Source: Escherichia coli (lineage in GTDB: Bacteria; Pseudomonadota; Gammaproteobacteria; Enterobacterales; Enterobacteriaceae). From it: 64,000 nucleotides of DNA. Where the stretch lies: NCBI RefSeq assembly GCF_044324875.1, contig NZ_CP172185.1; one strand, 5' to 3'. Shown here piece after piece: positions 28,601-34,600 of the stretch (positions are counted from its first letter, which is position 1; each line of letters starts with the position of its first letter). Position numbers: made by a program.

Positions 28601-31600
28601 TACTCTCGTTTTGAGACTGCTCCCAGGACAATGGAACTCGTGTGAAGTTGTCAGGAACATGAAATATAAACCACCATACCCAGAACGTGGCTACACGGTT
28701 GGTTTTTATCCAGTCCGGAACTGCTTCACTTTCTGAATTATCGGTCTCAACAACTCCTGATGTATTATCCGGATAATGCTCAGCCCCAAAAAAACCATCA
28801 ACAGGGTTATCTGGTGAATACACAGACATTAACTCCATGGGTATAAATGTATAGCCATCTAAAGAATCAAATCCTCTCTTACTTTCAACTCCTCTGTAAG
28901 TCAATTCTATCTGAATTCTCTTTTAACGACACATCAGAAAAAATGCAACACCCACATTGGTGATTTTCATTTGCTTACAAAACCATACTTTAAATTACAA
29001 ACAAATAATACACACACCTCGGATAAAATCACGTCGAAATTTAATTATTTTAAATAAATAATGCATTAAAAATATCCATAAATTATCCAGCTGAATATTT
29101 TTTATATGAAAAACATGCTGTCGTTCGTTGTCTTGCGTATTCCGCTCTATTCGATCACGGATTGGCATCGAAGTCCGATCAGCGATTCGCATCCATTCGA
29201 TCAACCGGGAACTTAACTTTTTCTACCGCTTTTTAACGCGTTTTTTCGCTGCTTTCCACTACCGGGGGATTTTTCCTCAGTGACTCTCCCTGAAGGACCA
29301 CTCGGTGTGAGTTATGTACCAGTCTGTCCAGGATGGCATCTGCTGTTGTTGGGTTCTCCATCAGACCATGCCATTTATCTACCGGGAACTGGCTTACCAC
29401 TATCGTGCTGCTTTGTCCGTAACGATCCTCTATGAGCTCCAGAAGGTCATTACACTGGGCGTTACTTAACTGTTCCAGCCCCAGATCGTCCAGGATTAGA
29501 ACCTGTATTTTTTGCAACTGTTTCAGATATTTCAGCCAGCTGCCATCAACACGTCCCTGAGCCAGTTGTTCCAGTAATCGCCCGGTTCTACAGTACCGGA
29601 CGCTGTGTTTCTGTCGACATGCCTGTTCGCCCAGCGCATTGGCTATCCAGCTCTTGCCACATCCTGTCGGACCGGTTATCAGCAGGTTTTTCCTGTGGGT
29701 TATGTAGTGGCCGTTCAGCAGTTCTCTCATCTGTTCAGCCCGCAGACCTCTTGAGGCCGGATAGCGCAGCCCTTCCGGTGTTGCCTGGTATTTCAGGCCG
29801 GCATTTTTTCTCAACCGTGCCACACGGCTGTTTTCCCTGCTCAGAAGCTCGTCATCAACCAGCAGCGTCAGCCTTTCCTCGAACGACAGTTCGTCGTAGG
29901 TCTGAGGCGTTTCCCGCTGCCGTATCAGGCTCCCGGCCATCGCCGGGAGTTTCAGTTGGGTCAGTTTGTTTAACAGGTTATCACTCATACTGTTGTTCCT
30001 TCTGTCAGTGGTAGTAGCCCGGACCACGCAGGTTTTCATGCTCTGAAGCATATGCCGGATGTTGTTCGCCCTGGCGGGATAATGGAAGCTCCAGGTTCTC
30101 CCGATGGTGACGCAGCAGATTGTCGATAAAGCGTCTGTCAGGGGCGTTATAGTGCAGGGCAACGTAACAGGCCTTTTCCAGCCGTTCCGGGCCGTATTTT
30201 TTCTGAAGTGCCAGCAGCCCCAGAACTGCACGATAAGCCAGTTCCGGATGGGGTTTTGCCTTCAGCATGGATTCAACCACCCGGCCTGTGGACGGGCCCG
30301 TACGTTTTCCCTGCTCGATCAGGCGTTCCGGTGTCCATGTCCCGTGCTGCCGGTGGCGCTCTGGCATGTGAAGCGGATTGGTTGTGTGTTTATATTCATG
30401 TGTGCTGCGCGGATGTTGCGCCACACACTGCCCCTTGTGCCAGAGCTGTACCACCGACTGCCCCGCCTTCAGTGACAGACGCTGACCGACCAGTTCGTGT
30501 GGAACGGAGTACCAGTGACGGGCATATTCAACGTGGTAGTCAGGGCCAACCTTCACAGCTTTGTATTCCGTGTATTCATAAGGTGCCAGAGGCAGCGGAG
30601 AGAGTGCTGGCGCATCCAGTATGCGGAAGCGTTCTGCACGGGTTTGATTGCCGTACCCCTTCATTGGCCGGTTATTCATGTCTGTCAGTAACTCCCTAAG
30701 GCGCGCATTCAGCGCCCTGAGCGTGTGGAAGGTTTCATTACGGATGCGGGCAAGAAGCCATCGTTCAACGATGAGGACGCCGTTTTCTGCTTTTGGTTTA
30801 TCTTTAGGTTTGCGTGGTCGGGCCGGGATGATAACCGTGCCATAGTGCTCAGCCAGTGCCTGATAACTGTCGTTGATGACAGGCTCATATCGATCGGCCT
30901 TTTTCACTGCGCTTCTGAGGTTATCGGGGATGAGCAGCTTCGGTACGCCGCCCAGGAAGGTCAGGCAACGGCTGTGGGCATTTAACCATGACATCATGTC
31001 CTGACCTTCGCACGCTTCAACGTAGGTATAGTTGGACGCCCCCATTACGGCCACGAAGATTGCCACGCGGCGTATCTCACCGGTGTCCGGATTAATAACA
31101 GGAACCGTAGGACCACAGAAGTCGATAAAAAGCTTTTCGCCGGCACGATGCTCCTGGCGCATGGAGAGACGTCGCGTTTTTTTCCACTCCCGGTAGCAAC
31201 GGCAGAAGTGCGAGTATCCCATCGCTTTGTTACCCGCCTGTGCCTTGTATTCCATCCACAACAGTTGCCGCGTCACACCTGGTTTTCTCATTTCCGTATC
31301 GAAGTACAACATGTCAGGCATTACAAGCTCTGATGCAAAGGTGTCTTTGGGCGGAAAAATGAGTTTCTCCAGCGTGTCATGGGATATATCAGCAGGTAAT
31401 GGCCATGACAGAGAAGAGGCTTTGAAGCGGGCAAGAACCTCAAAAACGGTTGAGGCGCTGATGTGTAACGTCAGTCCGATACAACGGTTAGTCAGCTTCT
31501 TGTCGAACTTGAGCTGAAGGATCTTAAAACAGGTTTCCATAGTGCTCCTGGATTTTCTCTTTCTGGACATTGACGTCTCCACTGGTTTAAACACGGCAAT

Positions 31601-34600
31601 GGAGACTGTGGTGAAAAGAGTTAATTCCCGGAGTGACTGGCAGGATGCCAATCAATGATCGGAAGCATGCCAAATCGTGATCGATTGTGATGCCAAACTG
31701 TGATCGGAGATGGATGCCAAATCATGATCGATTCGAATGCCAAACTGCGATCGATTCAGATGCCATTTTGCATTGTCTGTCTTCTCATCATATATGGCTG
31801 TGTTTCTGCGGTGCGCAAATGCTCTGCACGGACATGCCCGTAGCTGCCACGATGAGTGATGAGAAGCCGGCAAAGCATTTTTGATGCAGTGAAGTTCTCC
31901 AGGGAGACTAAGGTGATGGTGGTGGGGGGACCATATTCTCTGTACATAAGATGGTGGTGTGTGGAGGTGAGATGTACTCAGGGAAAACTTTCTTCTGCGT
32001 TCTGGTCGTTGTCTGTTATCCCTGACCACCATTGTTTTTGGCATTGTGAGTCTGATTCCGGATGTATGGCACGGTCGTTTTTTGCCGTATGCCTGCGTGC
32101 CTGTGTTCAGTTCAGAGCAATTAACTCATCCGGCATGGAGAATTCCTGTGTGTAATGCGGTAAGAAATGACTGACATGCATGTTATATGTGAAGGGGCGT
32201 GAGACGACATAATCAGTATGGTTGTTCTTCTGGTTGTAAAACGCGTTCGTTTTCCGGGATAGATGACGACGAAGTTAACTGACGAATAGGATGTTCCTGA
32301 TGGTCTTTTCAGGGAGCGCAGATATACGGAGTAAGAAAAATAATTCCAGAGTAAGGTTGTCTGTTTTTTAACCAGTAAAGTTCCATGCCAGATGTGAAAA
32401 CGGGAAACCAACATTCAGTCTGCATGGATGTCTGAAGATGTTGAGAATGTCGGATATGGTACTATATACACATATTTTACTAAGTATTTTTACTAAGCAT
32501 TTCAGTAAGTGTTATACACACATTCTCACAAACAATTCTACAAGTGTTTTCATTAAGCATTGCTGTACACATTGCTTTGTATGATACACATCCCGTTTAG
32601 TAAATCTTTACGTTAACTAAAATCTGTTTAATGCTGCTGTAAAACTAACCTTCCTGTTTAAGCAATCCATCTGCTATTCGATTTTGCTAATGTGACGTTT
32701 AACCTTTCCTGAGCTTTTGAGTTTTGAGTTTTGTGGTTTGTGGTTTGTGGTTTGTGTTTCGACGTTAGCATGAGAAAAGTATTTTTACGCTAAATCAACC
32801 CGAACTTTCCTGAAGTAATCTGACGTTCTTTTCGATGTGCTTACGACGATTCTGTTAAACGACTTTCTGGATGTTTTGATAACGATCAGCCTGAGGTGTG
32901 CATTAACGATTCCTGACGTTTTGCTTTTTCATGTAAGGTCATTGTTTTCGTCATGATGTGATTCATCTTGCATTGCGAAAGTGTGATGATTGGTTTTGGT
33001 GTTTTGTCGTGGATGCGGTTTACGTTATCGGTGGTTAAGCGTTTATGGTGTGTTGAAAAGTAACATACTCAAGATAAGAAAATCGATTCTGATGGGGATG
33101 ATCTTGTTACGACGTTATCTGTAAACAGGTTTTCAGCGTGTCATTTCGCATCCGCGATTGAGCGATGTTGTTAAGCTGCAGGTTTGATTTGCATTGTCTG
33201 GATGCGTTTCTGGTGTTTTGTTGATTCGTTTCCCTTCTGACTTTGTCGTTTTTAAATCCATTCGCTGTTGTTGTGTGTTTTTACCCTGCGTGCAGTGAAC
33301 CGCCCCGGGAATCCTGGAGACTAAACTCCCTGAGAAAGAGGTAAACAGAATGACTAAAAATACTCGTTTTTCCCCCGAAGTCCGTCAGAGGGCGATTCGT
33401 ATGGTTCTGGAAAGTCAGGGCGAATATGACTCACAGTGGGCGGCAATTTGTTCCATTGCCCCAAAGATTGGCTGTACACCGGAGACTCTGCGTGTCTGGG
33501 TACGCCAGCATGAGCGGGATACCGGAGGCGGTGATGGCGGGCTCACCACCGCTGAACGTCAGCGTCTGAAAGAGCTGGAACGTGAAAATCGTGAACTGCG
33601 CCGCAGTAACGATATCCTTCGCCAGGCTTCCGCTTATTTTGCGAAGGCGGAGTTCGACCGCCTCTGGAAAAAGTGATGCCACTGCTGGATAAGCTGCGTA
33701 AGCTGTACGGGGTCGGACCGGTATGCAGTGAACTACATATTGCCCCGTCAACGTATTACCACTGTCAGCAACAGCGACATCATCCTGATAAACGCAGTGC
33801 CCGTGCGCAGCGCGATGACTGGCTGAAGAAAGAGATACTGCGCGTATACGATGGGAATCATCAGGTATACGGTGTGCGTAAAGTCTGGCGTCAGTTGTTA
33901 CGGGAAGGAATCAGGGTAGCCAGATGTACAGTGGCGCGCCTCATGGCGGTTATGGGACTTGCCGGTGTTCTCCGGGGTAAAAAGGTCCGCACTACCGTCA
34001 GCCGGAAAGCCGTTGCCGCAGGCGACCGCGTAAACCGTCAGTTTGTGGCAGAACGTCCTGACCAGTTGTGGGTGGCTGATTTTACTTACGTCAGCACATG
34101 GCAGGGGGTCGTCTATGTGGCGTTCATCATTGATGTGTTTGCCGGATACATCGTGGGGTGGCGGGTCTCATCGTCTATGGAAACGACATTCGTGCTGGAT
34201 GCTCTGGAGCAGGCGTTATGGGCCCGTCGACCGTCCGGCACAGTCCATCACAGTGATAAAGGTTCTCAGTATGTATCGCTGGCCTACACACAGCGGCTTA
34301 AGGAAGCCGGATTACTGGCATCAACAGGAAGTACTGGTGACTCGTATGACAACGCGATGGCGGAGAGCATCAATGGCCTTTACAAAGCGGAGGTAATACA
34401 CCGTAAGAGCTGGAAAAACCGGACAGAAGTGGAGCTGGCCACACTCACGTGGGTGGACTGGTATAACAATCGACGATTGCTGGAAAGGCTGGGCCATATC
34501 CCACCGGCAGAAGCAGAAAAAGCTTATTATGCTTCCATCGGAAACGATGATCTGGCAGCCTGAGTTCACAGATAAAACACTCTCCAGGAAACCCGGGGCG

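Follow-up and report, generated by a model that had tools for sequence, protein, structure and literature searches.

The stretch of DNA analysed here, 64 kb from Escherichia coli and referred to as the window, contains three copies of an IS21-family insertion sequence in the same orientation, which we designate copies A, B and C (Table 1). Exact comparison proved copies A and B to be the same across their whole length, whereas copy C is cut off by the end of the window and equals the first 1,208 bases of the other two. A reading of the sequence alone had described three identical 2,639 bp copies in direct orientation, and this description was borne out both by base-by-base comparison and by a repeat search of the window, which returned only these three direct copies and no inverted one. 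The exact pairwise alignment that the sequence-only reading had proposed as a check gave 100% identity and none of the divergence that it had named as evidence to the contrary. Likewise, its spacing of about 26 and 31 kb was reproduced, the measured distances being 25,889 bp between copies A and B and 31,020 bp between copies B and C. Identity among the copies ends exactly at the left boundaries listed in Table 1, while to the right it overshoots by 2 bases and no more, because both target duplications start with TT. An exact repeat of 2.6 kb cannot be due to chance. About one quarter of the window consists of insertion-sequence DNA, and the three repeats are an already known, named insertion sequence, so far a matter of routine annotation and ordinary mobile-DNA biology.

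Table 1. Features of the window that are relevant to the three repeats
Feature	Position	Strand	Remarks
ISCro1, host of copy A	252-5623	-	IS66 family; own sequence 252-605 and 3251-5623
Target duplication of copy A	600-605 (left), 3245-3250 (right)		TTTTGC
ISSso4 copy A	606-3244	-	2,639 bp; within tnpC of ISCro1; identical to copy B
istB of copy A	705-1460	-	
istA of copy A	1477-3012	-	
IS100	20328-22281		IS21 family; 1,954 bp; 5-bp duplication ACTGG
ORF next to copy B	27957-28904	-	copy B sits 229 bp upstream
Target duplication of copy B	29128-29133 (left), 31773-31778 (right)		TTGTCT
ISSso4 copy B	29134-31772	-	in AT-rich intergenic DNA of a CP4-57-like island; identical to copy A
17-bp motif, two repeats	29152-29192	+	istB-proximal end of copy B; inward-pointing
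istB of copy B	29233-29988	-	IstB, AAA+ helper ATPase of 251 aa
istA of copy B	30005-31540	-	IstA, DDE transposase of 511 aa
17-bp motif, five repeats	31645-31753	-	istA-proximal end of copy B; spacing ~23 bp
ISSso4 copy C	62793-64000	-	first 1,208 bp within the window
istB of copy C	62892-63647	-	followed by the start of istA

Structure and identity of the element

In each complete copy, istA and istB follow each other on one strand with 16 bp between them, as is the rule in the IS21 family, and PGAP calls the same istA reading frame in identical copies on plasmids. As an IS21-type DDE transposase, IstA reaches 284.7 bits with the NF033546 profile (cut-off 160), contains the Pfam domains rve and Mu-transpos_C_2, and aligns to the IstA structures of IS5376 (8B4H and 8Q4D). 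Read off this alignment and the positions of the motifs, D140, D206 and E252 are candidates for the catalytic triad. IstB reaches 257.8 bits against NF038214 (cut-off 200) and an E value of 1e-60 against PF01695; it carries the Walker A (GPTGCGKS) and Walker B (VLILDD) motifs of an AAA+ helper, and its closest solved structures are those of IS5376 IstB (8Q3W and 5BQ5). Scans for tRNA genes and Rfam families yielded nothing relevant to the element.

The sequence of the element runs TGCGTATT...TTTTGCA and has the TG...CA ends of the IS21 family. These ends were checked on seven independent plasmid copies, in which differing flank bases stand directly after ...TTTTGCA. The alternative of a 4-bp duplication combined with an element two bases longer is ruled out by these unrelated bases. 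Both ends carry a repeated 17-bp motif, CGATCnnnnnTTGGCAT, and the motifs are presumed to be binding sites for IstA. Transposition in the IS21 family depends on IstA and IstB and proceeds via paired ends or a reactive tandem junction; a tandem junction of element ends was not found by the repeat search of the window. The sequence-only reading had also assigned 6 bp repeats of their own to two of the copies, and both TTTTGC at copy A and TTGTCT at copy B are indeed present, within the range of 4-8 bp that applies to target-site duplications in the IS21 family. Among 23 independent insertions of the element, duplications of 7 bp and of 6 bp each occurred nine times, those of 5 bp four times and one of 4 bp once. 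Membership in the IS21 family, as originally suggested, is thus confirmed by the profile scores of IstA and IstB, and in accord with it are the TG..CA ends, the repeated terminal motifs and duplications of 5-7 bp.

By the ISfinder convention, elements that share at least 95% DNA identity count as the same. On this basis the element is ISSso4, an ISfinder entry of the IS21 family first named in Shigella sonnei, the identification being made by proxy via the pCT element and an annotation label. The pCT element, listed as ISSso4 in PMC6361801, agrees in length (2,639 bp) and in its ends, and it is 99.7% identical to the element in the window, from which seven substitutions separate it. PGAP labels the IstB protein of identical copies "IS21-like element ISSso4 family helper ATPase IstB", while it describes IstA only as "IS21 family transposase".

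The layout of istA and istB resembles that of IS21, the prototype of the family from plasmid R68, and of IS5376, its structural model, and the likeness extends to the combination of a DDE transposase with an AAA+ helper, the TG..CA ends, the presence of several end motifs and the short duplications. The proteins of IS5376 are nevertheless distant (E values of ~1e-13 for IstA and 4e-24 for IstB), and IstA from the window is, with 511 residues, longer than the IS5376 chains of 373-406 residues. At the istA end, five repeats are present as compared to the three left-end repeats of IS21. Moreover, the duplications vary between 5 and 7 bp, whereas a length of 5 bp is quoted for many IS21-family members in PMC11208146.

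The IS100 copy in the same window is also a member of the IS21 family and shares the gene order and the TG..CA ends with ISSso4. Its IstB is, however, only 28% identical to that of ISSso4, and for IstA identity amounts to 32% across just 59 aligned residues. IS100 therefore belongs to a different subgroup, and we infer that cross-mobilisation between the two elements is unlikely.

Insertion sites and origin of the three copies

Copy A is a simple insertion that splits the transposase gene of ISCro1. When its empty site is reconstructed, it aligns to intact ISCro1 copies in one piece with 99.7% identity, and in E. coli F1022 the orthologous ISCro1 is found uninterrupted at the same chromosomal position, with a single TTTTGC, i.e., as the precise empty site. 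At copy B, homologous islands run collinear with both flanks through the insertion point, and these unoccupied homologues belong to a different island variant that is only ~84% identical. The site of copy C is continuous in LH50-c (L001, 45328/45329), where it is intergenic and located 133 bp upstream of a gene for a dolP-family lipoprotein; the stretches that LH50-c shares with the region of the window are ~98-99% identical. Copy C continues past the end of the window, where its right end may be rearranged, and the evidence from duplications covers copies A and B. When we searched 5,426 complete E. coli genomes for any of the three junctions, including that between ISCro1 and ISSso4, none was found.

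We consider it highly probable that the three repeats are copies of ISSso4, each of which stems from its own simple and recent transposition in this E. coli lineage. Recent transposition had already been proposed from the sequence, and it is upheld by the empty site in F1022 for copy A, by the continuity of LH50-c for copy C, by the collinear flanks of copy B and by the absence of the junctions from the complete genomes. The age of an insertion cannot be read from sequence identity alone, since ISSso4 as a whole is close to clonal, with 339 of 506 plasmid records being at least 99% identical. By analogy with IS21 and IS5376 (PMC11208146 and PMC10122671 on IstA and IstB), IstA would bind the 17-bp repeats of the two termini and pair them, IstB with bound ATP would assemble on the target DNA and bend it, IstA would then connect the TG...CA ends to target strands cut with a stagger of 5-7 bp, and the flanking duplications would result when the gaps are repaired.

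It is also conceivable that the insertions occurred elsewhere and that island segments already bearing ISSso4 came in from other hosts through horizontal transfer or recombination. The region has a mosaic make-up, and in no complete genome does coverage of either segment between the copies exceed 73%. In addition, conjugative plasmids commonly carry ISSso4 (376 of 506 matching records), and ISCro1 is itself mobile, such that ISCro1::ISSso4 could travel as one unit. Even this combined junction is, however, among those missing from the complete genomes, F1022 has an intact ISCro1 at the corresponding place in its chromosome, and the three copies are mutually identical, which makes import as the general explanation unlikely, while one or more of the insertions may have been made in another host and brought in with an island segment.

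Gene conversion among old copies would also keep them identical: between 2.6-kb direct repeats that lie within 60 kb such conversion is feasible, and identity in itself cannot separate conversion from recency. Nevertheless, we regard this as very improbable, given that the insertions are missing in the closest relatives, that no junction occurs in other complete genomes, and that the copies are also identical to those on unrelated plasmids, which conversion within one genome would not explain. The view that two of the copies formed a composite transposon and carried the enclosed segment of 26 or 31 kb has next to nothing in its favour beyond the general ability of insertion-sequence pairs to mobilise the DNA between them. 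Copies A and B are each bordered by a separate pair of matching duplications. On its two outer sides the A-B unit differs (TTTTGC to the left of A and TTGTCT to the right of B), where a composite transposon should have one shared outer duplication and none around the single copies, and the sequences on both sides of copy A are the two halves of a single ISCro1 gene. Misassembly is a well-known hazard where repeats are longer than the reads, but placement of one copy three times, or polishing of divergent copies into one, is hardly credible here, as misplaced copies would not give distinct flanks that match unoccupied sites elsewhere, together with separate duplications at A and B.

Target sites of ISSso4

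Across 53 insertion sites, the target consensus of ISSso4 is weak and oriented, with T at position -4 in 34 of them. It was also observed that the element has struck one homologous site in three different transposase genes of the IS66 family, namely those of ISCro1 in the window, of ISEc8 on pAPEC-O2-ColV and of a third member on pAST19_1. Several cases from metagenomes in which the same site appeared with two flank variants are old truncated remnants of 59-176 bp that were possibly inherited, and they were merged in the statistics.

In the literature, IS21 elements are described as having no strong specificity for a target sequence and as selecting bendable DNA. For ISSso4 we propose that targets are non-random: there would be an oriented, asymmetric consensus of approximately S-S-Y-T-T-N3 adjoining the istB-proximal end, and the IS66-family transposase gene would contain a recurrent hot spot, hit independently in the three elements named above; we see the chances for and against this proposal as evenly balanced. 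Recruitment of IstA to the hot spot by the 17-bp motif was rejected: none of the three target elements contains a match of at least 8 bits, compared to 22-28 bits for the true terminal motifs in the same scan. The target of copy A, TTTTGC|CGTAT, partly resembles abutted ends of ISSso4, and we treat this as a coincidence, as the sites at the other two hot-spot insertions are unlike it. If the proposal is true, one insertion sequence would preferentially inactivate a competing insertion sequence, and the hot spot would offer a natural preferred substrate for experiments on target capture by IstA and IstB.

Spread of ISSso4 and consequences for the island

Full-length ISSso4 is present in 225 of the 5,426 complete genomes. 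Copies that are 100% identical to the element in the window reside on plasmids as well as chromosomes of E. coli from poultry, and many of the best-matching ISSso4 records come from this source. The number of matching places per genome reaches 23, which points to current activity, and ISSso4 appears to be expanding in E. coli at present.

It follows from homologous recombination in general that direct copies are substrates for deletion and amplification. The 2.6-kb direct repeats could therefore plausibly mediate RecA-dependent deletion of the segments of 25.9 and 31.0 kb between them, or their amplification in tandem. The duplications of copies A and B are matched, and therefore recombination between these two copies has not yet taken place. 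A separate observation concerns L032, considered as a candidate deletion derivative, in which the left junction is the same as in L036 and L046 but the right flank is different and was not found in the neighbouring DNA that was compared. This hints weakly at a rearrangement, and a chimera of the metagenome assembly is possible.

The junctions of ISSso4 are useful as lineage markers, and they are likely break points in assemblies from short reads. For the island itself, the identical direct copies mark the places where it could lose or amplify blocks of 26-31 kb.

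Identity and boundaries of the element

Exact comparison and a repeat search of the window, which recovered the same three direct copies (A, B and C) of the 2,639-bp element and no inverted ISSso4 copy, bore out the sequence-only reading that the copies are identical and directly oriented: they show 100% identity without any divergence, for copy C over its 1,208 bases. A and B are separated by 25,889 bp and B and C by 31,020 bp. TTTTGC is present on each side of copy A and TTGTCT on each side of copy B. As both duplications start with TT, the boundaries were ambiguous. An element two bases longer with 4-bp duplications was rejected, because seven independent plasmid copies stop at ...TTTTGCA and continue into unrelated bases. 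This common end, together with the duplications of 5, 6 or 7 bp in these seven copies, confirms the boundaries originally drawn and, with them, the 6-bp repeats of A and B.

Judged by its sequence, the element has every defining feature of the IS21 family that is known to us and testable, in agreement with its earlier assignment. For the DDE transposase IstA, the NCBIfam model NF033546 ('IS21 family transposase', cut-off 160) gives 284.7 bits, and the protein contains the Pfam domains rve and Mu-transposase C-terminal. The AAA+ helper ATPase IstB reaches 257.8 bits with NF038214 (cut-off 200), matches PF01695 (E 1e-60) and carries the Walker motifs A (GPTGCGKS) and B (VLILDD). The termini are TG...CA, and a 17-bp motif, CGATCnnnnnTTGGCAT, is repeated at both ends (see table). 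IstB also matches IS5376 IstB structures, and IstA can be aligned to the solved IS5376 IstA structures 8B4H and 8Q4D; from this alignment and the motif positions we read D140, D206 and E252 as likely catalytic residues. The N-terminal helix-turn-helix region of IstA (residues 6-70, window 31330-31525) matches NF038385, the IS66 accessory protein TnpA (E 9e-15), with a score short of that model's cut-off, a hint that a DNA-binding module may be common to IS21-type ISSso4 and the IS66 family.

PMC6361801 names ISSso4 among the accessory modules of plasmid pCT. The pCT element equals the window copy in length (2,639 bp) and termini, is 99.7% identical to it and has a 6-bp duplication, ATACTT; the IstB of copies identical to those in the window bears the NCBI pipeline label 'IS21-like element ISSso4 family'. 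On the basis of this likeness and label we therefore identify the element as an isoform of the known ISSso4. Matches occur in 506 plasmid records (at least 99% identity in 339), mostly from Escherichia and in 376 cases conjugative. Of 5,426 complete E. coli genomes, 225 contain full-length ISSso4, and the highest number of matching places in a single genome is 23. Copies 100% identical to those of the window occur in E. coli from chickens, on plasmids as well as on chromosomes. Several fresh copies of this already known element within an IS-rich island are ordinary.

Coordinates of ISSso4 copies, neighboring features and IS66-family insertion sites (window positions unless stated otherwise)
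Feature	Position	Strand	Remarks
Copy A	606-3244	minus	2,639/2,639 bases identical to copy B
Copy B	29134-31772	minus	2,639/2,639 bases identical to copy A
Copy C	62793-64000	minus	equals first 1,208 bases of A/B; right end outside window
istA of copy B	30005-31540	minus	511 aa
istB of copy B	29233-29988	minus	251 aa
17-bp motif, five times	31645-31753		istA end; spacing about 23 bp
17-bp motif, twice	29152-29192		istB end
IS100	20328-22281		1,954 bp; TG..CA ends; 5-bp duplication ACTGG
IS2-like element (presumed)	18115-19445		1,331 bp; 5-bp duplication CAGGC
IS629-like element, IS3 family	33296-34605		1,310 bp; CAG on each side
PTS EIIA / EIIC-GAT / PfkB kinase / class II aldolase cluster	50220-54276		within segment absent from LH50-c
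M20 peptidase	58307-59578		within segment absent from LH50-c
Family-5 solute-binding protein	59613-61250		within segment absent from LH50-c
Site 1, ISCro1 tnpC	600-605 / 3245-3250		duplication TTTTGC
Site 2, ISEc8 on pAPEC-O2-ColV (NC_007675.1)	around 3787-3793 of locus L014		duplication CCTTCGC
Site 3, third IS66-family member on pAST19_1 (NZ_AP043613.1)	around 3598-3603 of locus L011		duplication CCTTCC

Insertion sites, recency and possible rearrangement

The window represents a chromosomal island of mosaic composition. Its closest relative, the poultry strain LH50-c (locus L001), is about 98-99% identical across shared stretches and lacks all three ISSso4 copies. Copy A splits tnpC, the transposase gene of the IS66-family element ISCro1 (window 252-5623). 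When copy A and one TTTTGC were excised in silico, the joined flanks aligned in one piece, at 99.7%, to intact ISCro1 copies, and E. coli F1022 has an uninterrupted ISCro1 at the same chromosomal position, where the window flanks overlap by exactly TTTTGC. LH50-c is continuous across the site of copy C (L001 45328/45329), which lies between genes and 133 bp upstream of one of the dolP family. Copy B resides in a rarer island variant, whose reconstructed junction is matched collinearly by homologous islands of about 84% identity. Queries combining 300 bases of flank with 300 bases of element, one per left junction, did not reach even 80% coverage in any of the 5,426 genomes. Identity between copies, from which recent transposition had been deduced, is weak evidence for dating, given how close to clonal the ISSso4 population is as a whole; the empty sites in the nearest relatives and the private junctions are a stronger argument and support recent, lineage-specific insertion of A, B and C.

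By analogy with the IS21 family, IstA tetramers would pair the element ends, and IstB-ATP decamers would impose an S-shaped bend on the target and hand it to IstA, whereupon staggered strand transfer would give the target duplication (PMC11208146; PMC10122671). Intact genes, exact ends, own duplications and unoccupied sister sites mark the three copies as separate simple insertions. On general grounds, and in line with the sequence-only reading, directly repeated copies could mediate deletion or amplification of the DNA between them. A and B retain matched duplications, so that no exchange has involved either of them. Elsewhere, complete ISSso4 copies without duplication exist in a finished genome (L019) and in metagenome contigs (L023, L032, L051/L064), which fits natural rearrangement at ISSso4, with contig chimeras as the alternative.

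Other mobile elements and cargo of the island

Insertion sequences (three ISSso4, ISCro1, ISEc8, IS100, IS2 and IS629-like) account for a quarter of the window (about 16.3 kb), which is free of tRNA genes. IS100, a second IS21-family element, differs clearly from ISSso4 (IstB 28% identical; IstA 32%, over a local 59-residue stretch only). It is missing from the otherwise collinear LH50-c, as is the presumed IS2-like element, so classed by its IS2-type ends. The sole Rfam match in the window, an ALIL frameshift pseudoknot (33631-33747), lies inside the IS629-like element. At the spot of the ISCro1 carrying copy A, LH50-c has ISEc8 between the same flanking sequences (L001 5007-7460), so that two IS66-family members occupy one chromosomal spot in two strains; the window's own ISEc8 is 50 kb distant (54962-57415). 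The reverse nesting, ISCro1 within istB of ISSso4, occurs in CP057646.1 (L015, 4658-7356) and involves an 8-bp duplication (ISSso4 positions 838-845).

About 12 kb (49865-62230) are missing from LH50-c. Next to copy B lies a convergent pair of ORFs (26995-28904; 321 and 315 aa). Neither has a Pfam match, and in related islands their homologues carry no annotation beyond 'hypothetical protein'. Right of copy B, non-coding DNA contains imperfect 6-7 bp tandem units (GAGTTTT twice, then GTGGTTT three times; 32719-32756).

Possible target preference and insertion into IS66-family tnpC

A distant-mode search with the copy A junction retrieved ISSso4 at the same homologous position in two further IS66-family transposase genes, which at the DNA level share no more than about 70% identity with ISCro1. 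Differing immediate flanks and duplications (sites 1-3 in the table) indicate that the three insertions are independent. Elsewhere in IS66-family tnpC, further insertions map to ISCro1 positions 685/687 (687 estimated by eye), 839 and 1354. In 53 non-redundant left flanks, taken from a metagenome scan (47 loci) and from plasmid and genome copies and aligned at the istB-end junction, position -4 is T in 34 (p 2e-9), position -8 is G or C in 39 (p 4e-4) and position -5 is T in 22. Taken on their own, the metagenome subset and the plasmid/genome subset each show the signal, which persists without the loci from the biased search and is asymmetric, always pointing the same way with respect to the element. 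Copies A and C match it, copy B partly. Duplications range from 4 to 7 bp and open with CCTT in 5 of 23 complete insertions (0.09 expected).

Three hits on one site, retrieved by a search design biased toward same-site events, may not be very improbable if a weak consensus limits the usable sites: our rough estimate, made without computation, is 0.02-0.3 with the consensus versus about 1e-5 under uniform insertion. The weak, oriented target consensus that these sequences suggest beside the istB-proximal end of ISSso4, together with the hot spot in IS66 tnpC, might merit a further look, and these are the sole parts possibly deserving such attention.
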